Origin: Bacillota bacterium
GTDB taxonomy: Bacteria; Bacillota; Clostridia; Christensenellales; UMGS416
Assembly: GCA_023409755.1 (NCBI GenBank)
Contig: JAEYRA010000148.1
Location: 1 to 62,262, forward strand
Length of the DNA stretch: 62,262 bases
Direction: 5' to 3'
Shown: positions 546 to 45,627 of the stretch, piece after piece
Numbering within the stretch: the stretch's first letter is position 1
Layout: every line of letters starts with the position of its first letter
The notes under the pieces: model-generated
What the model saw: only the letters and a program-made list of their open reading frames with translations
What the model was told of the DNA's origin: nothing
Database searches by the model: none
Position numbers and translations under genes: made by a program

Positions 546-1565
546 ATGAAGACCATTCGTGTATGCGCCTTGGCATTGGCGCTGCTGCTGGCCGGCTGCA
601 CTGGGCCGGTGAGCGGAACGACCACCACCGCCGCCGCGACAGCAACCCCCACAATGTCAACGGAAGCCGCCGCGGCGTCGCCCACCCCAATGGCAACCAC
701 CTCGCCCAGCTCGTCACCTTCGCCGTCCGTCACGGTATCCACGCCGCCCGCCGTGGCGTCCAGCCTCCATCTTTCGGTGGAGGATTACCCAGTCGTGGAT
801 GGCTCCACCGCCACGCTGCCGCTGGCCATTGCCGTGCGGGCGTCGGTGACTGGTGAGACCGCTGTGCAAAGCGAGGAGGGGACGCGATTCTCCACCACCG
901 GGCCGGCCTGGCTGGCCCTGCAGCAGGGCACGGCCGATATTCTCATCGTCTACGAGGCCTCCCAGACCATACAGCAAGAGCTGGTGGGGGAGTACGACAA
1001 GTTCCTCAAGACGCCCATCGGCCTGGACGCGCTGGTGTTCCTGGCCAACGAGGGCAACCCCGTGGAGAGTCTGACCCGCCAGCAGATCGTCGACATTTAC
1101 AGCGGCAAGACGACCAACTGGAAGGATGTGGGGGGCAAGGATCAGCAGATCGTGGCCTTCCAGCGGGATGAGAACTCCGGCAGCCAGACGCTGATGAAAA
1201 AGCTGGCAATGGGCGGCACCCCCATGATGGACGCCCCGGCGGAGCTTCGCCCCAGTGAGATGGCGGGTCTCATCACCGACCTGGCCACCTACAACAACGG
1301 CGCCAACGCCCTGGGCTACTCGGTGTACTACTACGTGAAGAACATGTACCAGGCACCGGGCGTGAAGCTGCTGGCGGTGGATGGCGTTTCCCCCACTAGC
1401 GACACCATTGCCAGCGGGCAGTATGCCTACTGCAATCCGTTCTATGCCGTCATCCGCGCTGACGAGCCGGCCGACTCGCCGGCCCATAAGCTCTATGACT
1501 GGCTGACCGGCGCCGAAGGGGCTGCCGCTGTGGAGGCCGTCGGCTACGTGCCGTCGAACCGGTAA
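546..1565 (+). CDS. Lipoprotein with PstS-like periplasmic-binding (PBP-like) substrate-binding domain
   Basis: RBS AGGAGGAAGAGGG lies upstream. There is a signal peptide with lipobox LLAGC, then a T/A/S/P-rich linker. The DGSTATLP...IVAFQRDENSGSQ... region resembles phosphate-binding-like SBPs. Confidence 0.7.
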   Translation: MKTIRVCALALALLLAGCTGPVSGTTTTAAATATPTMSTEAAAASPTPMATTSPSSSPSPSVTVSTPPAVASSLHLSVEDYPVVDGSTATLPLAIAVRASVTGETAVQSEEGTRFSTTGPAWLALQQGTADILIVYEASQTIQQELVGEYDKFLKTPIGLDALVFLANEGNPVESLTRQQIVDIYSGKTTNWKDVGGKDQQIVAFQRDENSGSQTLMKKLAMGGTPMMDAPAELRPSEMAGLITDLATYNNGANALGYSVYYYVKNMYQAPGVKLLAVDGVSPTSDTIASGQYAYCNPFYAVIRADEPADSPAHKLYDWLTGAEGAAAVEAVGYVPSNR

Positions 1566-6187: not shown

Positions 6188-6598
6188 ATGGTCGTGATGA
6201 TTGTGGACGGGCAGGGTGGCGGCGTGGGCCGGGCGCTGGTAGCAGCCCTGCGGGCGAAGCTGCCGGCGGGGCACACCATCCGCGCGCTGGGCACCAACTC
6301 GGCGGCAACGGCGGCGATGCTGCGCGCCGGAGCAGACGAAGCCGCCACCGGGGAGCACGCCATTGTGCATAACGCGCCACGGGCCGACGTCATTGCCGGG
6401 CCCATCGGCATCGTGCTGGCCAGCTCTCTGCTGGGGGAGTTGACGCCTGCCATGGCAGCTGCCATTGCGGGCAGTGATGCCCAGAAGGTGTTGCTGCCCA
6501 TGGAGCGCTGTCAGACCCATGTGGTCGGCGCGGTGCCACTGCCCCTGGGGGAGGCCGTGGATCGTGCCGCTGACCTCATCCTGTCCCTTTTGGCCTGA
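6188..6598 (+). CDS. DUF3842 family protein
   Basis: MVVMIVDGQGGGVGRALV...ALGTNSAATAAMLRAGADEAATGE matches the DUF3842 pattern. ATG at 6188. Confidence 0.75.
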   Translation: MVVMIVDGQGGGVGRALVAALRAKLPAGHTIRALGTNSAATAAMLRAGADEAATGEHAIVHNAPRADVIAGPIGIVLASSLLGELTPAMAAAIAGSDAQKVLLPMERCQTHVVGAVPLPLGEAVDRAADLILSLLA

Positions 6599-6602
6599 TT
6601 CC

Positions 6603-6631
6603 TTGACCCGGAGAGCCGCACCCGCTATAAT
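6603..6631 (+). promoter_or_regulatory. Sigma-A type promoter for the cbiM operon leader
   Basis: TTGACC (6603-6608), 17-nt spacer, TATAAT (6626-6631). Confidence 0.6.
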
Positions 6632-6698
6632 AACCTGTGGTGCATTGGGTCATGAAGGCCCCGCCACCTGACCTGGACACCAACGTAGAAATGGACTG

Positions 6699-6753
6699 CC
6701 ATGAAGGCCGTCGGACCGCAGCAGCGGGCCGCGCTTCATGGTATTTTTGTTTT
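6699..6753 (+). terminator. Leader terminator (attenuator) directly upstream of the cbiM RBS
   Basis: CCATGAAG (6699-6706) pairs with CTTCATGG (6734-6741) around a GC-rich interior, followed by TTTTTGTTTT. A second CATGAAGGCC copy at 6650-6659 could form an alternative pairing. Confidence 0.6.
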
Positions 6754-6768
6754 GAGGGGGATTTTGTC

Positions 6769-7827
6769 ATGCACATGTCAGATGCGCTCATCAGCCCCGT
6801 GGTCGGCGGTGTGCTGTGGGCCGGGGCCGTGGGGGCCGCGGCGTACTCGGCGCGCAAGCTCGCCAAGGACGACCTGATGGAGAGCCGCAAGGTACCCATG
6901 ATGGGCGTCATGGGGGCCTTCGTCTTTGCCGCGCAGATGATCAACTTCACCATCCCCGGCACAGGTTCCAGCGGCCACATCGGCGGCGGATTGCTGCTGG
7001 CCGCCCTGTTGGGGCCGGAGGCTGGCTTCCTGGTGCTGATGGCGGTGCTCGCCATTCAGGGGTTGTTCTTTGCCGATGGCGGTCTGCTGGCCATGGGCTG
7101 CAACATCATCAACATCGGCTTCTATGCCTGCTTCCTTGCCTATCCTTTGATTTTCAAACCGTTGACAGGCAAGGGCACTTCCCCGGGCCGCACTACGCTG
7201 GCGGCGGTGCTGTCGGTTGTGGTCGGGCTGCAGTTGGGGGCGTTCTCCGTGGTGTTGGAGACGCTGCTCAGTGGCCGCACCCAGCTTCCTTTTGGCTCCT
7301 TCCTGCTGCTGATGCAGCCCATTCACCTGGCCATCGGTGTGGTGGAGGGGCTCATCACCGCGGCGGTGCTGGTGTTCCTGCGCCGCGCCGCGCCGGAGGC
7401 CCTGCCGGAGAGCCAGACGTCGGTTTCCGGCGGTTTCCCCAAGCGGGCGGTGGCGATCGTGGCTGTGTTGACGCTGGTGACCGGCGGCGCGTTGTCGTGG
7501 TTGGCCTCCACCCACCCCGATGGGCTGGAGTGGTCGATTGCCGGTGTCACCGGGGGGAGCGAGTTGGCCTCCAGCGGCGCGGTGTACGACTCACTGGGCC
7601 AACTGCAGGAGAAGACGGCCTTCCTGCCGGACTATGGCTTCCGCGCACCGGCTGACGATGCGGCGGCGGAGGCCGAAGCACAGTGGCCGGCGGTCAGCGC
7701 GGGTACCTCGGTGGCCGGCGTGGTGGGCAGCGCACTTACACTGGCGGTGGCGGTGGCGGCGGGCCTGCTGCTGTGGCTGCCCCGACGCAGGCGAGCGGCG
7801 CGGGCGGCCCACGGCGACGCCGCTTGA
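6769..7827 (+). CDS. cbiM: ECF-type Co/Ni transporter substrate-capture component CbiM/NikM with C-terminal PDGLE (CbiN-like) extension
   Basis: MHMSDALISPVVGG...AAQMINFTIPGTGSSGHIGGG is the CbiM signature. The C-terminal part contains THPDGLEWSIAG (PDGLE domain) and a terminal TM helix. RBS GAGGGGGA. Confidence 0.85.
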   Translation: MHMSDALISPVVGGVLWAGAVGAAAYSARKLAKDDLMESRKVPMMGVMGAFVFAAQMINFTIPGTGSSGHIGGGLLLAALLGPEAGFLVLMAVLAIQGLFFADGGLLAMGCNIINIGFYACFLAYPLIFKPLTGKGTSPGRTTLAAVLSVVVGLQLGAFSVVLETLLSGRTQLPFGSFLLLMQPIHLAIGVVEGLITAAVLVFLRRAAPEALPESQTSVSGGFPKRAVAIVAVLTLVTGGALSWLASTHPDGLEWSIAGVTGGSELASSGAVYDSLGQLQEKTAFLPDYGFRAPADDAAAEAEAQWPAVSAGTSVAGVVGSALTLAVAVAAGLLLWLPRRRRAARAAHGDAA

Positions 7828-7887
7828 CAGGGTAGGGTCGGCAACACAACAGGCGGGCCGGCGGCCCGCCTCGACTTGTCAATAGAG

Positions 7888-8116
7888 GTGGGATAAGGAT
7901 TGGGAGTATGGGCCGACCGACGGTTTATCCGGCGGGAGGGAGACATAAATCAATGGAAAAAGCAGACGCAAAAACTCGCCCGTGGCGAAACGTATCCGAT
8001 GAAAGCTGCATGAGTGCTATGGGTGGGTATCGTTCGGCGACATGCGCGGCGAACGATACGAGAAAACCGAAACAAGCAGTCTGAATCGCGGACGTCGCCG
8101 CAGCGGCGTACGTGAA
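7888..8116 (+). repeat. Copy 1 of the multi-hairpin intergenic element family, between cbiM and cbiQ
   Basis: It shares the ordered motifs with the other five copies: HP1 CGACGG-TTTAT-CCGGCG + GGGAGG; CGCC-CGT-GGCG + AAACGTA; ATGAG; GTATCGTTCG-GCGACATGCGCGG-CGAACGATAC; AACAAGCAGTCTGAAT; and CGCGGACGTCGC-CGCA-GCGGCGTACGTG. Confidence 0.85.
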
Positions 8117-8135
8117 CCGAAGGAGGAACGGGCAA

Positions 8136-8942
8136 ATGGGTACGGCAGACCGGGCGATGGCGTCGTTGGGGCGCATGGAGGCGTTGACACGGCAGGACAC
8201 GCCCATTCACCGGCGGCACCCGCTGGCCCACCTGTTGGTGGCGCTAGGGTACCTCGTCACGCTGGCCTCCTTCAGGCGGTATGAGCTGGCTGGCCTGCTG
8301 CCCTTTCTCTTCTACCCGTTGGCGGTGGCCGCGCTGGGGGAGCTGCCGCTGGGGGACTTGATGCGACGGGGACTGCCGGTGCTGCCGCTGGTGCTGTTTC
8401 TCGGGGCGTTCAACCCCATCTTTGACCAGAACGTGCTGCTCTTTGCCGGGTATCGGCTGTCTGCGGGTTGGCTCTCTCTGGTGAGCATGACGCTGCGGGG
8501 GATACTGAGCGTGTTGGCGGCGCTGCTGCTGGCGGCCACCGCCGGTATGGCCGGGCTGGGCCGGGCGCTGGGGCTGCTGCGGGTGCCCCAGGTGATTGTG
8601 ACCCAACTGCTGTTCACCTACCGGTATCTCTTTGTGCTGGGGGGCGAGGGTGGCCGCATGTGGCTGGCGTACAGCCTGCGTGCCTCGGGGCAGCGGGGGG
8701 TGGCATTCCGCCAGTGGGGCAGCTTCGCCGGCCAGTGGCTGCTGCGCTCCCTCCACCGGGCGGAGCGCATCCACGCCGCCATGCTCTGCCGAGGGTTCGA
8801 CGGTGCCATGCCCGGGGGCCCGGCAGTTCCGTTCGCCTGGGCGGATGGCCTGTATGCCGCCGGGTGGATTGCCTTCTTTGTGGCTGCGCGGCTTGTGAAC
8901 CTGCCGCTGTGGCTGGGATCGCTGTTGATAGGAGGAACCTGA
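8136..8942 (+). CDS. cbiQ: ECF transporter transmembrane (T) component CbiQ
   Basis: RBS AGGAGG at 8121-8126 and ATG at 8136. Multi-TM protein with CbiQ-like sequence, positioned between cbiM and cbiO. Confidence 0.85.
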   Translation: MGTADRAMASLGRMEALTRQDTPIHRRHPLAHLLVALGYLVTLASFRRYELAGLLPFLFYPLAVAALGELPLGDLMRRGLPVLPLVLFLGAFNPIFDQNVLLFAGYRLSAGWLSLVSMTLRGILSVLAALLLAATAGMAGLGRALGLLRVPQVIVTQLLFTYRYLFVLGGEGGRMWLAYSLRASGQRGVAFRQWGSFAGQWLLRSLHRAERIHAAMLCRGFDGAMPGGPAVPFAWADGLYAAGWIAFFVAARLVNLPLWLGSLLIGGT

Positions 8943-8944
8943 CC

Positions 8945-9679
8945 ATGCCCATCATCGAAGCCCAAAGCATGCAATATGCCTACCCTGACGGCCACCCGGC
9001 GCTGGGGGGGCTCACCTTTGCCGTGGAGCCGGGGGAGCGGGTGGGCCTGGCCGGCCCCAACGGTGCGGGCAAGTCCACGCTGTTGCTGCTGCTGGCCGGT
9101 GTTCTGCTGCCTGGCAGCGGTGTGCTCACCATCGCCGGGCACCGGGCGCAGAAGGGTACATTGCCGGCCATTCGCCGGGCGGCGGGGCTGGTGTTTCAGG
9201 ATTCGGACGATCAGCTCTTCTGCTCCACCGTGCGGGAGGATGTGGCCTTCGGCCCCCGCAACCTGAAACTGCCCGAGGCCGAGGTGGCCGAACGGGTGGA
9301 GCGTGCGCTTGCGTTGACTGGCGCGGCACCCCTGGCTGACCGGCCGCCCTACAAACTCTCCGGCGGGGAGAAGCGGGCCGCCGCCGTGGCCGCGGTGCTC
9401 GCCATGGAGCCGCAGGTGCTGCTGCTCGATGAGCCTTCGTCCTCCATGGACCCGCAGGCGCGCCGGCGGCTCATTCGCCTGATGCAGGGCCTGCCCCAGG
9501 CACAGATTGTGGCGTCTCACGATCTTGACCTGCTGTGGGACGTGTGCGACCGGGTGCTGGTGCTGCGCCAGGGTGCCATCGCCGCCGACGGCCCGGCCCA
9601 CGATGTGCTGCGCGATGAAGCGCTGCTTGCCTCCTGCGCGCTGGAGCTGCCACTGCGCCTGCAACCCCTGGGGGTATGA
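8945..9679 (+). CDS. cbiO: ECF transporter ATPase CbiO
   Basis: Walker A GPNGAGKST, signature LSGGEKRAAAVA and Walker B LLLDEP. It starts 3 nt after the cbiQ stop. Confidence 0.9.
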   Translation: MPIIEAQSMQYAYPDGHPALGGLTFAVEPGERVGLAGPNGAGKSTLLLLLAGVLLPGSGVLTIAGHRAQKGTLPAIRRAAGLVFQDSDDQLFCSTVREDVAFGPRNLKLPEAEVAERVERALALTGAAPLADRPPYKLSGGEKRAAAVAAVLAMEPQVLLLDEPSSSMDPQARRRLIRLMQGLPQAQIVASHDLDLLWDVCDRVLVLRQGAIAADGPAHDVLRDEALLASCALELPLRLQPLGV

Positions 9680-40666: not shown

Positions 40667-43039
40667 ATGATGGAACATCGCATCAAAACGCTGTACATTG
40701 TCCACCACTCCCACACCGACATCGGCTACACCGACCTGCAGGAGCGCATCGTCGACGTGCAGGTGGAGCACATCCGTGCGGCCATCCGCGACCTCACCCA
40801 ACCTGAGAACCAGGAGTTCCGGTGGAACTGCGAGACCTACTTCTGTGTGGAGCGATTCCTGGAAGTGGCGAGCGTTGAGGAACGCCGCCAATTCTTCGCC
40901 CTGGCGCGGCAGGGGCGCATCGGCGTCTCCGCCACCTATTTAAACTTCAATGACCTGGTGGATGCCGATGTGCTGAAGCGCCGCACCGCTGAGATGGTCG
41001 GCGTCTTCGGCGGGGAGGATATCCCCGTGCGCACGGCCATGATTGCCGATATCAACGGCATCTCCATGGGCCAGCGGGATGCCCTGCTTGCCAACGGTGT
41101 GGAGTTCCTGTTCACCAACATCCACACCCACCACGGCATGTACCCCCTGTGGCGCAACCAGAACGCCTATTGGTGGGAGAATGCCGCCGGCCAGCAGCTG
41201 CTGGTGTGGAACGGCGAGCACTACAACCTTGGAAACGCTCTGGGCATCAAGCCCAACCGCATCAACTACTATATGGAGCGCAACTACTTCGGCGACCAGC
41301 ACCTCATGGATGGGGTGGAAAACCTGCATAAGAACCTGGAGCACTACCTCGCCGAGTGCGAGGAGGCTGGTTACCCCTACGACTTCATCGTGAGCGGCGT
41401 GTCCGGCGTGTTCAGTGACAACGCCCCACCCAGCCCCGAGATTCTGCGCACCATCGAGGCGTATCACCACCGGTATGGCGACGCTGTCCGGCTCCAGATG
41501 GTATCCCTGCAGGAGCTGTACGCCGCCATCGCCGACCGGCTGGGGGATCTGCCGGTCTACCATGGCGATCTCACCGACTGGTGGGCCAACGGCGTGGGCT
41601 CGGCCCCCGGTGCGGTCAAGCACTACCGCGCGGCCCAACGCATGTTCCGGCTGGCCAATACCCTGGACGACGGCCTGCGGGCCGGCTTCCCGGCCGTCAC
41701 CCGCGTGGTGGAGGACAATCTCCTGCTCTACGCCGAGCACACCTTCGGTCACTCGGCCACCGTGTCCAACCCCTATGAGACCCAGGTGCGCGACCTGGAA
41801 ATGCGCAAGTCGAGCTATGCCTCCAAGGCCCACGAGGGAGCGGCGAAACTTTTGAACCAGGCGCTGCTGCGGCGTGGCGGCACGCTGCTTTATTACAACA
41901 CCGACGGCATCATCCGTGCCACCAACGCCGGGTCTGCCGGCAGCCACCCGGTGGAGTTTTATGTGGAGACGATGACGCTCCCGGCGGTGCGAGTCACCAA
42001 CACCGGCACCGGCGATGAAATGACGGTGCAGCTCTCCACCCACCCGCGCGGGGTGCGCGTCACCTTTGTGGACGCCTTCGCCGCTGGGGAGAGCAAGGAG
42101 TACCGTTATGAGGAGCTGCCCGCGCCGCTCGTTACCCTCAATACCCGCCATGCCTTCGTAGGGGCCGAGCGGGTGCGCGACGTCGTCAACGACTTCGACC
42201 CCGAAACCTACCGCCTGACCAATGAGGTGGAGAACCCGTGGTTCCGCATCACCTACCGCGTGGGCAAGGGCTTCACGGCCTTTGTGAACAAGACGACCGG
42301 GCAGGACATGCTGGGCAGCGGCTTGGCACGGTTCTTCACCCCGGTGTATGAGCGCACCGAGCTGCGCCACCCTGCCTATGAGGAGCGGGCGCTGCTGGGC
42401 CGCAACATCCGCGGCGTCCACGCCGAGCAGTATGCCGGGGAGATGACCGGCGTGCGTTGCATCGACCAGGGGCCGGTGTTCACCACGCTGGAGTTCTCCT
42501 TCCGGCTGGAGGGGACGCGCCAGTGCTTCGTGCTGCTGCGGGTATACCGCACGCTGCCCCGGCTGGACTTCGCCCTGCGGCTCGCGAAGAATCTCTCCGA
42601 CGACATCGAGAGCGTTTACCTTCCCTTGGAGCTTAGCCTGCCCGGTCGGCAGGCTTGGCTGCGTAAAGGGGCCGAGGCCTTCCGCCCGGGTGTGGACCAG
42701 ATCCCCGGCACGTGCATGGAGTATTGGTCGACCGACGAGGGCGTGGCCTACCTCAATGCTGGGCAGGCGGTGCAGGTGTTCACCCCCGACACCCCCCTCG
42801 TCTACATGGGTGAGCTGCAGCACCACCCCATTGCCCTGTGCGATGGCAAGGAGGAGAATAACCGCCGTCCCGTCTGGTCGTGGGTGATGAACAACACCTG
42901 GGAGACCAACTTTCCGTTGGATCTGTCGGGCTTCTATGAGTTCAACTACCGGCTGGACCTGAGCGACGCCACCGATGCCGAGGCCTGCCTCGATGAGATG
43001 GCCGCCAAGTCCCTGGGCGTGTTCACCCATATGGTGTAG
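40667..43039 (+). CDS. Glycoside hydrolase family 38-like protein (alpha-mannosidase-related)
   Basis: N-terminal TLYIVHHSHTDIGYT resembles the GH38 metal-binding HSHxDxG motif. 790 aa. RBS GGAGGAG. Confidence 0.75.
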   Translation: MMEHRIKTLYIVHHSHTDIGYTDLQERIVDVQVEHIRAAIRDLTQPENQEFRWNCETYFCVERFLEVASVEERRQFFALARQGRIGVSATYLNFNDLVDADVLKRRTAEMVGVFGGEDIPVRTAMIADINGISMGQRDALLANGVEFLFTNIHTHHGMYPLWRNQNAYWWENAAGQQLLVWNGEHYNLGNALGIKPNRINYYMERNYFGDQHLMDGVENLHKNLEHYLAECEEAGYPYDFIVSGVSGVFSDNAPPSPEILRTIEAYHHRYGDAVRLQMVSLQELYAAIADRLGDLPVYHGDLTDWWANGVGSAPGAVKHYRAAQRMFRLANTLDDGLRAGFPAVTRVVEDNLLLYAEHTFGHSATVSNPYETQVRDLEMRKSSYASKAHEGAAKLLNQALLRRGGTLLYYNTDGIIRATNAGSAGSHPVEFYVETMTLPAVRVTNTGTGDEMTVQLSTHPRGVRVTFVDAFAAGESKEYRYEELPAPLVTLNTRHAFVGAERVRDVVNDFDPETYRLTNEVENPWFRITYRVGKGFTAFVNKTTGQDMLGSGLARFFTPVYERTELRHPAYEERALLGRNIRGVHAEQYAGEMTGVRCIDQGPVFTTLEFSFRLEGTRQCFVLLRVYRTLPRLDFALRLAKNLSDDIESVYLPLELSLPGRQAWLRKGAEAFRPGVDQIPGTCMEYWSTDEGVAYLNAGQAVQVFTPDTPLVYMGELQHHPIALCDGKEENNRRPVWSWVMNNTWETNFPLDLSGFYEFNYRLDLSDATDAEACLDEMAAKSLGVFTHMV

Positions 43040-43047
43040 CGGCCTTC

Positions 43048-43275
43048 GGCCTTTCGCGGTTGCCGCTGTGGCGACAGCCGCGATTCAGGCAACTTGTCCT
43101 TGACATGTGTGTCGCCCGCCGTACATGCCGCCGGGCGACATCGTAGCTTTCTCGCTCATGCTGTGTCTGGGAAACGATGTTCGCTTGTGGGCGGGTTTCT
43201 GTTTCCTGCCTGTGCCAGATACACTGTTCCTCCCGCCGAATGAATCGGCGGTCGGTTCGGGGTTGACCTCTTGAA
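43048..43275 (-). repeat. Copy 3 of the multi-hairpin intergenic element family (only minus-strand copy)
   Basis: The reverse complement carries CCGCCG-ATTCATT-CGGCGG+GAGG, CGC-CCACAA-GCG, ATGAGCG, GTCGCCCG-GCGGCATGTACGG-CGGGCGAC, CTGAAT and CGCGGCTGTCGC-CACA-GCGGCAACCGCG + AAAGG. Confidence 0.85.
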
Positions 43276-43292
43276 ACAGCTTTTTAGGTGTT

Positions 43293-43324
43293 GCGCCCGT
43301 CAGTTCCGCTGGCGGGCGTTTTTC
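43293..43324. terminator. Terminator-like hairpin between the GH38-like gene and pta
   Basis: GCGCCCGTCAG-TTCCG-CTGGCGGGCG followed by TTTTT, with an A-run on the other side. Confidence 0.6.
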
Positions 43325-43386
43325 TATGCGAAACTGCCGTTTACGGGTATAATGAGGGCAGAAACCGCGCGAAGGGGGTGCTGACG

Positions 43387-44379
43387 ATGGGATTTTTGGA
43401 ACGGATGATGGAGGAAGCCAAGGCCGACCGCAAACGCATCGTGCTGCCGGAGGCCGATGACCGCCGCACGTTGGAGGCTGCCTCGACCATTCTCCGCCTG
43501 GGGCTGGCGGATGTCATCCTGGTGGGGGACCGTGTCGAGGTGGCACGGGTGGGCGAGGGGCTGGAACTCGCTGGGGTGGAGATCGTCAACCCCGCCGAGG
43601 CACCCTGCCGGGAGACCTACGTGCAGGCGTTCTATGAGCTGCGGCGCGCCAAGGGCATGACCGAGGAGCTGGCGGCCCGCACCCTGGCCGACCCGGTGAC
43701 CTTCGCCACGATGATGGTGCGGCAGGGCGACGCCGACGGCATGGTGTCCGGCGCGGCGCACTCCACCGCCGACACCGTGCGGCCCGCGCTGCAAATCCTC
43801 AAGACCAAGCCGGGCATCAAGCTGGCATCGTCGTTCTTCGTGATGGAAGTGCCAAACCGGGAGTACGGGGCCGACGGGCTCTTTGTGTTTGCAGACTGCG
43901 GCCTGGTGGAGAACCCCACCGCCGAGGAACTGGCCCATATCGCCGTGCAGGCGGCCGATTCCTTTGCGGCGCTGGTGGGGGAGGAGCCGGTGGTGGCCAT
44001 GCTTTCTTACTCCACTTTGGGCAGTGCCCACAGTGACCAGACCGAGAAGGTGGCCCAGGCCGCCGCCCTGGCCCAAGAGCTGCGGCCGACCCTTGCACTG
44101 GATGGTGAACTGCAGGCTGACGCGGCCATCGTGCCTTCGGTGGGCCGCAGCAAGGCCCCCGGCAGCGCCGTGGCGGGCCGGGCCAATGTGCTGGTGTTCC
44201 CGGATCTCTCAAGCGGTAACATCGCCTACAAACTGGTGCAGCGGCTGGCCGGAGCACAAGCTTACGGGCCCATTTTGCAGGGCATTGCCCGCCCGGTCAA
44301 CGACCTCTCCCGCGGGTGCAGCGCTGAGGACATCGTCGGGGTTGTCGCCATCACGGCCGTGCAGGCCCAGCGGGGGTAG
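43387..44379 (+). CDS. pta: Phosphate acetyltransferase
   Basis: RBS AAGGGGG before MGFLERMMEEAKADRKRIVLPEADDRRTLEAA..., 330 aa, short Pta type. Confidence 0.9.
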   Translation: MGFLERMMEEAKADRKRIVLPEADDRRTLEAASTILRLGLADVILVGDRVEVARVGEGLELAGVEIVNPAEAPCRETYVQAFYELRRAKGMTEELAARTLADPVTFATMMVRQGDADGMVSGAAHSTADTVRPALQILKTKPGIKLASSFFVMEVPNREYGADGLFVFADCGLVENPTAEELAHIAVQAADSFAALVGEEPVVAMLSYSTLGSAHSDQTEKVAQAAALAQELRPTLALDGELQADAAIVPSVGRSKAPGSAVAGRANVLVFPDLSSGNIAYKLVQRLAGAQAYGPILQGIARPVNDLSRGCSAEDIVGVVAITAVQAQRG

Positions 44380-44382
44380 GGG

Positions 44383-45231
44383 ATGGCAACGATCACGCGG
44401 TTGGCCCCGGCCAAACTGAATCTGACGCTGGACGTGACGGGCTCCGCGCCCAACGGCTACCACACGCTGGACATGGTGATGCACACCGTGGACCTCTGCG
44501 ACACGGTGACAGTGGAGGACGCCGACGAGCTCACCATGCGCTGCCCCCAATGGCTGCCTGCAGGCCCCGGCAACCTGGCGTGGAAGGCCGCCGACCGGCT
44601 GCGGCAAGCGGCTGGAGTCACGCGGGGTGCCTGCATCACGCTGGAGAAGCGTATTCCAGCCCAGGCCGGCATGGGTGGGGGCAGTGCAGACGCCGCCGCG
44701 GTGCTGCTGGCCCTCAACGATCTGTGGGGGCTGGGCTGGACGGTGGAACGGTTGGCTGAGGCGGGCGTGACGCTGGGAGCTGATGTACCTTTTGCCTTGC
44801 GGGGCGGCACGGCGCGGGTCACCGGCATTGGCGAGCGGGTGGAGCCGCTTAAACCGGCGCGGCCCCTGTGGTTCGTGCTGGCCAAGCCCGAGGGCGGGGT
44901 GGACACCGGCGCCTGCTACCGCTGCTATGACGAACTGGGGGCGGAACGCCGCCCGGTGAACGACCGCTTTGTGCCGGCGCTGCTGGCCGGTGACCTTGCT
45001 GATATGGCGCGGTGGGGCGGCAACGCGCTGGAGCCAGCCGCGGTGGCGCTGCTGCCGGCGGTGGGGGAGCTGCTGGCGCGCCTTGCTGCCTGCGGGGGCG
45101 TGTACACCGCCATGACCGGCAGTGGCGCGGCGGTCTTTTCAACCTTCGCCAGCGAGGAGGAGGCCAGACGTGCTCTGGCTGCGCTGGGGCCAGTGCCCTG
45201 GTCGGCGGTGGCGCGGTCGTGGGCGGGCTGA
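44383..45231 (+). CDS. ispE: 4-diphosphocytidyl-2-C-methyl-D-erythritol kinase
   Basis: APAKLNLTLDV and the GHMP kinase motif GMGGGSADAAAV. 282 aa. Confidence 0.9.
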   Translation: MATITRLAPAKLNLTLDVTGSAPNGYHTLDMVMHTVDLCDTVTVEDADELTMRCPQWLPAGPGNLAWKAADRLRQAAGVTRGACITLEKRIPAQAGMGGGSADAAAVLLALNDLWGLGWTVERLAEAGVTLGADVPFALRGGTARVTGIGERVEPLKPARPLWFVLAKPEGGVDTGACYRCYDELGAERRPVNDRFVPALLAGDLADMARWGGNALEPAAVALLPAVGELLARLAACGGVYTAMTGSGAAVFSTFASEEEARRALAALGPVPWSAVARSWAG

Positions 45232-45347
45232 ATGGGGTTGCCGCAAGGCGTGAATGGAGGTTGATCTGAAGAATCCCCGTAGGGGTTTGTCAGACAGAAA
45301 AACCGGGACGCACATCTGGGTGTTGGCGCAGGCTGTCAAAAAATCGG

Positions 45348-45573
45348 CACAGGAAGAAATAGAGTGAGCCGAGCGCCGGTTCATCCGGCGGGAGGGAGCA
45401 ATTGTGGGCGTGAATACCAAATAAAATCCCGCCCGTAGGCGAAACGTATTTCCCCCAGAACCCGTATGGACGCTATCACTTGGTATCGTTCGGCGACATG
45501 TGCGGCGAACGATACGACGAAATGGGAACAAGCACTCTGAATCGCGGCTGTCGCAACAGCGGCAGACGCGAAA
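45348..45573 (+). repeat. Copy 4 (reference copy) of the multi-hairpin intergenic element family
   Basis: HP1 CGCCGG-TTCAT-CCGGCG (45374-45390) + GGGAGG; HP2 CGCC-CGTA-GGCG + AAACGTA; ATGGA; HP3 GTATCGTTCG (45483-45492) / 13-nt loop GCGACATGTGCGG / CGAACGATAC (45506-45515); GAACAAGCACTCTGAAT; HP4 CGCGGCTGTCGC-AACA-GCGGCAGACGCG (45543-45570). Confidence 0.9.
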
Positions 45574-45601
45574 AACCGGGACGCACGTCTGCGTCCCGGT
45601 T
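45569..45601 (-). terminator. Intrinsic terminator of degV (minus strand)
   Basis: AACCGGGACGCA-CGTC-TGCGTCCCGGTT. On the minus strand it is followed by TTTTTC, which overlaps the 3' end of repeat copy 4. Confidence 0.7.
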
Positions 45602-45627
45602 GCCGGTTCTCTGTGGTGTGCCTTGGC

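Follow-up and report, generated by a model that had tools for sequence, protein, structure and literature searches.

Here, we report that the cbiM-cbiQ spacer of a predicted cobalt/nickel importer operon in an uncultured member of the Bacillota carries a copy (copy 1) of a four-hairpin repeat. As a whole explanation, given a probability of about 0.7, we propose that copy 1 is a relic MITE-like repeat, set at an ancestral hairpin and co-transcribed as a passenger. The identity of copy 1 is very likely and its neutrality in the operon, judged from sequence features, reasonably likely. The in-operon copy is an ordinary consequence of the target preference of its family.

The window (the whole 62,262-nucleotide stretch analysed) is contig C180 of the G000 assembly (3.06 Mb, 208 contigs, 61.6% GC). 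G000 is the genome carrying the window, G003 is its sister genome, and G001, G002, G004, and G005 are further genomes of the same genus. The window encodes CbiM-PDGLE, CbiQ, and CbiO in one co-oriented cluster, the arrangement of a cbiMQO-type ECF Co/Ni importer operon (assigned with Pfam; the metal is predicted). The gene order cbiM-cbiQ-cbiO recurs in 145 loci, and cbiM and cbiQ are each single copy in the G000 assembly. The spacer between them (7828 to 8135, 308 nt) begins after the cbiM stop codon (TGA, 7825 to 7827). A promoter scan limited to sigma-70-like consensus sites returned a single good candidate for the cbiM-cbiQ-cbiO unit, upstream of cbiM at 6603 to 6631. Feature coordinates are collected in Table 1.

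Table 1. Operon features, repeat copies in the window, and sense copies fused to ribosome-binding sites (window positions unless a G000 contig is named)
Feature	Position	Strand	Basis or remark
Promoter-like site, TTGACC-17-TATAAT	6603-6631	+	11/12 consensus matches; same motif kept in five same-genus genomes
cbiM leader: repeated CATGAAGGCC segment, and terminator-like hairpin then T run	6632-6768	+	Operon context, outside the repeat; outline conserved across the genus
cbiM fused to PDGLE domain (substrate-binding S component, ECF Co/Ni importer)	6769-7827	+	Pfam CbiM 3.9e-53, PDGLE 2.6e-26
GC stem-loop, 9 bp + 3-nt loop, AGGCGGGCC-GGC-GGCCCGCCT	7851-7871		No + strand T run after it
Copy 1 of the four-hairpin repeat, sense	7872-8118	+	nhmmer 1.2e-60; alignments; junction inferred from G003 empty site
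Copy 1, HP1	~7917-7935	+	
Copy 1, HP2	7977-7987	+	
Copy 1, HP3	8027-8059	+	
Copy 1, HP4	8087-8114	+	
cbiQ Shine-Dalgarno, AGGAGG	8121-8126	+	9 nt 5' of ATG
cbiQ (T component)	8136-8942	+	Pfam CbiQ 5.1e-21; ATG at 8136; 92% identity to G003
cbiO (ATPase)	8945-9679	+	Pfam ABC_tran 5.1e-29; 2 nt past cbiQ stop
Other window copy	43290-43048	-	Window sequence comparison
Other window copy	45330-45576	+	Window sequence comparison
Other window copy (copy 3)	47825-48149	+	Window sequence comparison
Other window copy (copy 4)	49722-49971	+	Window sequence comparison
Fused sense copy	C182:3128		Gene behind it: MetRS
Fused sense copy	C68:2406		Gene behind it: LigT-like
Fused sense copy	C178:8280		Gene behind it: xylose-isomerase-like
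Fused sense copy	C124:3359		Gene behind it: RecG
Fused sense copy (copy 1)	8118		Gene behind it: cbiQ

The original prediction described a 308-nt spacer with a GC hairpin at 7851 to 7871 and a sense-oriented repeat copy, and verification on the sequence found these coordinates right within 1 nt. Its statement that the element ends 5 nt before the cbiQ Shine-Dalgarno came close; the distance to the ribosome-binding site is 6 nt from the end of HP4 and 2 nt from the family-consensus 3' end (~8118). The element had also been called full, which holds for the complete four-hairpin core and not for the rest, as copy 1 is without the fifth hairpin, the right terminal inverted repeat (present in 9/33 full-length copies), and the hairpin-sized duplication of the target. 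Copy 1 directly adjoins the 3' foot of the 7851 to 7871 hairpin, and its left terminal repeat is degenerate (8/17). It is 72% identical to its nearest paralog and 67.5% identical to the family consensus, and despite the latter value all four helices are nearly intact. The plus strand is predicted to fold at −108.9 kcal/mol (z = −2.66), versus −86.8 kcal/mol (z = −0.94) for the minus strand. Copy 1 either lost or never carried the right repeat and the duplicated hairpin, and, with its degenerate left repeat, it is presumably an immobile relic.

For comparison, genome and metagenome contigs supplied 145 orthologous cbiM-cbiQ junctions. Only 35 of them (gap of at most 10 nt) bear out the premise of normally adjacent or overlapping cbiM and cbiQ; the gaps have a median of 61 nt, 76 measure 41 to 130 nt, and, with 6 of at least 300 nt, the 308-nt spacer is long, not unique. 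A stem-loop of 6 bp or more occurs in 72 of the 76 spacers of 41 to 130 nt (12 with a T run after it), and folding of the orthologous spacers gave a mean z-score of −2.1 versus shuffles. Comparison with orthologous cbi operons, which had been suggested as a check, therefore turned out contrary to the presumed adjacency, a hairpin-bearing spacer of ~60 nt being the norm for the CbiM-PDGLE type.

Within the genus, only G003 is close to G000 (CbiM, 91% identity; CbiQ, 92%; dS, 0.33 to 0.43). Its spacer of 87 nt lacks the element and holds the orthologous hairpin (CAACACAACAGGCGGGC-TGACA-GCCCGCCT). The spacers of G001 and G005 (62 to 63 nt) have a hairpin and then TTTTTT, that of G002 (81 nt) has a hairpin, and in G004 cbiM and cbiQ overlap. 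At the junction (slash), G003 reads GCCCGCCT/GAAG, and G000 reads GCCCGCCT, then positions 7872 to 8118, and then GAAGGAGG; taking the element out of G000 in silico leaves a spacer of ~60 nt of the usual kind. As the orthologous hairpin stands in G003 without the element and stem-loops are usual in orthologous spacers, the comparison of junctions shows that the 7851 to 7871 hairpin predates the element, for which it would have been the landing pad. A search of metagenome contigs for closer relatives with which to date the event gave a best CbiM match of only 58% identity.

The cbiM(-PDGLE)-cbiQ intercistronic stem-loop is itself widespread across phyla, which suggests a general means of setting expression of the S component apart from that of the T and A components. 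REP/BIME palindromes, for example at malE-malF in Escherichia coli, form stem-loops between cistrons and influence how strongly the segments of an operon are expressed relative to one another, and by analogy a role of this kind is likely for the ancestral hairpin. We know of no description of a widespread cbiM-cbiQ intercistronic stem-loop.

An nhmmer profile built from five window copies gave 154 matches in the 3.06-Mb genome. The family numbers more than 100 copies in G000, with a core of ~250 nt whose consensus starts with (Y)TCAGAGTGTCTACAAACC and ends with ...GACGCGAAAGGC. Four helices (34 base pairs) are common to 70 distinct near-full copies, with 93.9% of cells paired. Double changes were counted in 221 cells, versus at most 79 in 200 column shuffles and 19 to 50 with the 3' partner slid by 1 to 3 columns, counts in which independence is overstated as the copies are related. 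A T.G wobble in HP4, kept in 47 of 69 copies, points to a strand-biased fold. No Rfam model matched the repeat in the window at gathering thresholds, and nothing relevant was found at E ≤ 10 over 42900 to 50200 or 6500 to 8200. The family is present in G000, strong in G003, and weaker in G001 and G005, all within one genus of uncultured Bacillota. It was not found in the 37 other relatives searched or in 399 further genomes sampled from the class (a sample that sets a floor), and had no match in plasmid, phage, or viral-contig collections.

The family follows a hairpin-foot insertion rule. Of the 56 copies with an intact 5' end, 33 have that end directly behind a GC hairpin of 7 bp or more (0 to 3 nt away), versus 6.5% of 3,000 random intergenic positions (odds ratio, 20.6; p = 5e-24), and the target hairpins all differ in sequence. 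Among 78 copies for which both neighbours could be placed (rough gene calls), the flanking genes are convergent for 38, tandem for 35, and divergent for 4, and the remaining copy sits within a gene; the tandem-pair copies, 15 sense and 20 antisense, have no orientation bias. A fifth hairpin, whose 3' half plus TGA is TTTGTCGACAGCCTGA, occurs in 9 of 33 full-length copies. Only in 9/33 full-length copies is there a terminal inverted repeat (TCAGAGTGTCTACAAAC versus the reverse complement of the 3' end, TCAGGCTGTCGACAAAG; 14/17), and 8 of 9 terminal-repeat copies are followed by a direct duplication of the whole target hairpin (22 to 29 bp). Contigs C199 and C123 hold examples of intact copies. 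The same duplication accompanies several copies without the fifth hairpin, such as window copy 2 and a 590-nt variant on C99. The family thus behaves like a lineage-restricted, noncoding, MITE-like mobile repeat that would insert at the 3' foot of GC-rich stem-loops. The search for a source of transposase covered repeat-end pairs and DUF772 (PF05598) only. In G000, no pair of repeat-like ends 0.6 to 5 kb apart enclosed an open reading frame, which in fragmented assemblies does not imply absence of a parent element. IS1182-type DUF772 transposases had no match in G000 or G003, and those of G001 and G005 are without these ends.

Several copies depart from the common form. Long variants of ~590 nt (G000 C99:~790-1310, minus strand; C54:20700-21100) carry extra hairpin modules in HP1, HP3, and the HP3-HP4 linker and are still flanked by the duplicated target hairpin; window copy 3 has one extra hairpin module of 77 nt. 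In a diverged sub-group (G000 C4:50886-51316, C71:1487-1730, and others), the 3' ends continue ...GACGCGAAAG/CGAAGCG..., and two neighbouring copies on C4 are 96.6% identical. This sub-group may form a family of short repeats in its own right, with a relationship to HP4. In the window, smpB (Pfam SmpB, 1.7e-58; 47295 to 48306) is followed by copy 3 and not by a tmRNA gene; copy 3 was considered as a tmRNA and rejected, as neither ARAGORN nor Rfam detects a tmRNA in any part of the window. Group IIC introns also insert after terminator hairpins; they have domains V/VI, usually encode a reverse transcriptase, and exceed ~600 nt. The 250-nt element has no open reading frame and no Rfam group II match, and nothing favoured a group II intron or a guide-RNA scaffold (omega-RNA).

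The history of the cbi site can be read in two directions. A tentative and rather unlikely alternative places the element already in the common ancestor of G000 and G003, with a later deletion from G003 instead of a gain in G000. It draws on the 28% divergence of copy 1 from its nearest paralog, which exceeds the ~21% of an orthologous shared copy, on a G003 segment (GACGGAAC) alignable with the terminal ACGTGAAC of the element, and on the site of window copy 4, where G003 keeps only a 13-nt match to the element 5' end, which indicates that near-complete deletions happen. Against it, parsimony calls for a single gain, the G003 site and the G000 flanks share the clean junction GCCCGCCT/GAAG, and young masters are likely missing from the fragmented assembly. 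Parsimony and the clean junction would favour a gain in G000, and the paralog distance, read in a 208-contig assembly in which repeats are under-assembled, would favour an old event.

G003 shares two of the other window copies; a third is specific to G000 or deleted in G003, and at the site of the fourth G003 has a different insert. At the counterpart of 49722 to 49971 (G003 C41:57900-57940), the same terminator hairpin is followed by the 13-nt 5'-end match (TGAGCGTGTCTA...) and then by ~36 nt absent from G000; either G003 lost nearly all of the element at this site, or the insertion in G000 removed part of the target. Where G000 has copy 3 (47769 to 48237), G003 C41:55448-56417 carries an unrelated 969-nt insert that is AT-richer and looks coding.

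Fusion to a ribosome-binding site recurs. Five of 109 copies with a 3' end, copy 1 included, end 1 to 4 nt 5' of the strong ribosome-binding site of a co-oriented gene (Table 1). The MetRS gene behind one of them is the only clear MetRS gene in the G000 assembly, RecG comes after FakA, the 2'-5' RNA-ligase-like (LigT-like) gene comes after a gene read as purD-like, and the xylose-isomerase-like (sugar-isomerase-like) gene sits within a co-oriented gene row. Expression of MetRS through the element, if it occurs, would make the sense strand permissive. All five fused copies are without the right terminal repeat and the duplicated hairpin. A deletion between the terminal GAAAGG of the element and AAGGAG of the ribosome-binding site is a possible cause of the fusions, as is, alternatively, a target deletion limited by selection.

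For the operon, the evidence points to a passenger. The plus strand of the spacer (7828 to 8135) had no promoter-like site in the sigma-70-like scan and no hairpin with a T run, i.e., no intrinsic terminator; in ~70 family copies, no T run follows any of the four sense-strand hairpins. With the element in place, the cbiQ ribosome-binding site has a predicted mean unpaired probability of 0.81; in silico removal of the element gives 0.83. Between G000 and G003, dN/dS was 0.146 for cbiM, 0.103 for cbiQ, and 0.078 for cbiO (198 codons), values that average over both lineages since their split and say nothing on expression after the insertion if it was recent; as those of cbiQ and cbiO are not above that of cbiM, selection appears not to be relaxed downstream of the element. 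The original prediction offered several possibilities for copy 1. That it does not terminate transcription in the sense orientation agrees with the missing plus-strand T runs, the unpaired cbiQ ribosome-binding site, the dN/dS of cbiQ and cbiO, and the four other sense copies before ribosome-binding sites; that it provides cbiQO expression, taken as supply of a promoter, found no backing, the spacer having no sigma-70-like site and the sole good one lying at 6603 to 6631.

On the passenger reading, the stem-loop normally present in the cbiM-cbiQ spacer would have attracted the repeat, and the element now puts 247 nt between the hairpin and the cbiQ ribosome-binding site. It would be transcribed in one cbiM-cbiQ-cbiO mRNA from the promoter at 6603 to 6631. 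Its sense strand would neither stop RNA polymerase nor mask the ribosome-binding site, so that cbiQ and cbiO would still be made; any change in the CbiM:CbiQO ratio would be a side effect and not a designed function. The element-bearing genome has the stronger initiation signals (G000 cbiQ, AAGGAGG-N9-ATG, window 8119 to 8138, versus GGGGGT-N7-GTG in G003), and these might offset a real cost that the element imposes. An antisense terminator was considered as an explanation of the sense orientation and rejected; the A run before HP2 (antisense U run) occurs only in 22 of 67 copies, and tandem pairs are unbiased.

Functional readings of copy 1 were weighed against the passenger reading. The element might have been co-opted as a post-transcriptional module, with the mRNA cut in the A-rich, single-stranded HP1-HP2 linker at ~7940 to 7975 or at the hairpins, the cbiM 3' end shielded by the ancestral hairpin and HP1, and the cbiQO 5' end capped by HP2 to HP4, which would set the CbiM:CbiQO ratio. 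The 6-nt approach of HP4 to the ribosome-binding site, the fusions of the 3' end at five loci, and the near-intact helices of copy 1 at 67.5% consensus identity would suit such a role, as would the hairpins already present at relatives' junctions, some with T runs, where differential expression is apparently wanted; RNase III and RNase E are known to process Correia and ERIC elements carried in transcripts (PMC10969869). The stronger cbiQ ribosome-binding site and start codon of G000 are a hint towards a regulatory or processing role. However, most copies are convergent and intergenic with no gene downstream, so that mobility requirements explain the fold, the genes behind the five fused copies are functionally unrelated, and G003 manages without the element; we consider co-option unlikely. 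In a broader form, the sense-strand RNA would be a portable, transcription-permissive 5'-untranslated or intercistronic module, fused 1 to 6 nt 5' of ribosome-binding sites, with terminal hairpin(s) that stabilise or process the downstream mRNA, which seems to us quite improbable. If it were true, hosts would have repeatedly kept such fusions (cbiQ, metG, recG, ligT-like, and sugar-isomerase-like genes), and in the cbi operon the element would replace a simple hairpin as the setter of the ratio of S versus T and A components.

A polar insertion would have most transcription from the cbiM promoter stop at the hairpin or element, with cbiQO expressed from a new promoter in, or made by, the element and uncoupled from the cbiM leader. 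Termination or Rho action could be promoted by 247 nt of structured, untranslated insert, G000 has a stronger ribosome-binding site and start codon than G003, and the scan detects only consensus sigma-70 sites. Yet the spacer has neither a promoter-like site nor a plus-strand hairpin-T run, GC-rich HP4 occupies the place where a −10 box would have to be, and MetRS and RecG tolerate the same arrangement, which together make this reading very improbable. That the repeat is nonmobile and acts as a riboswitch- or attenuator-like cis-regulatory RNA, or makes up a family of small-RNA genes, is hardly credible; the conserved, covarying, strand-biased fold and the better folding of the plus strand speak for it, whereas the repeat has no Rfam match, occurs in more than 100 copies in both orientations to its neighbours and mostly at gene 3' ends, has terminal inverted repeats and target duplications in intact copies, occupies sites polymorphic between G000 and G003, and is confined to one genus among ~440 genomes searched.

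Known elements resemble the family in part. Chunjie, a MITE of Geobacter uraniireducens Rf4, is noncoding, ~235 bp long, and present in dozens of full and partial copies; one copy lies between genes of a phosphate-uptake operon that remains unbroken, and many copies are without terminal or direct repeats, as here (Chen et al. 2008, Genetics 179:2291, via PMC10969869). Unlike Chunjie, the present family has a covarying, strand-biased four-hairpin fold, and its co-transcription is predicted from sequence. We know of no report of Chunjie targeting hairpin feet or duplicating whole hairpins. IS1272/TnSha1 (IS1182 family, staphylococci) target a hairpin, often a terminator, with no primary-sequence specificity; they insert at its base in either orientation, leave no short target duplication, and delete part of the target (PMC4923244, PMC5678879). 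Theirs is the closest targeting behaviour, as the present family also inserts at stem-loop bases regardless of sequence, and the absence of a short duplication and the partial target deletion resemble copy 1 and window copy 4. In contrast, intact copies here come with a duplicate of the whole hairpin in place of a deletion, and IS1272/TnSha1, being autonomous elements or transposons, carry a DDE transposase, whereas no DUF772 match was found in G000 or G003. IS1630/ISMhom-1 (IS30 family; autonomous, mycoplasmas) insert at terminator-like palindromes with long duplications that include them, a habit that matches the intact copies. REPs are ~35-bp palindromes linked to RAYT (REP-associated tyrosine) transposases; the present element, unlike them, is ~250 nt long with four different hairpins. 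Correia (Neisseria) and ERIC (enterobacteria) elements are MITE-like and co-transcribed, with stable RNA folds whose cleavage by RNase III or RNase E alters mRNA fate (PMC10969869). These effects were demonstrated experimentally and concern other sequences, hosts, and targets (TA for Correia), whereas the present family is known from its sequence. The family is distinct in being gene-less, with a covarying, strand-biased four-hairpin core, whole-hairpin duplication, and no parent element found.

As a passenger, copy 1 would explain an odd operon architecture without new regulation and would offer a natural test of structured untranslated RNA tolerated by an operon, even by the leader of an essential gene. 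The sites provide junction-level data on hairpin-targeting elements, a class still poorly understood (an empty site, a relic, and intact copies that have terminal repeats and a duplicated whole hairpin). In annotating this lineage, a check of long operon spacers for the repeat should come before any proposal of regulatory RNAs.

The cbiM leader is a candidate for an unclassified attenuator or riboswitch of the Co/Ni importer. It had no Rfam match at gathering or permissive thresholds (E ≤ 10 over 6500 to 8200), and no cobalamin riboswitch lay in sense orientation directly upstream of orthologous cbi operons at the 18 loci checked. Its layout is kept in all five same-genus genomes, with a near-consensus promoter, two CAYGAAG(G) segments, and a T run just 5' of the ribosome-binding site; each of the two segments could pair with a CTTCRYGG 3' arm.
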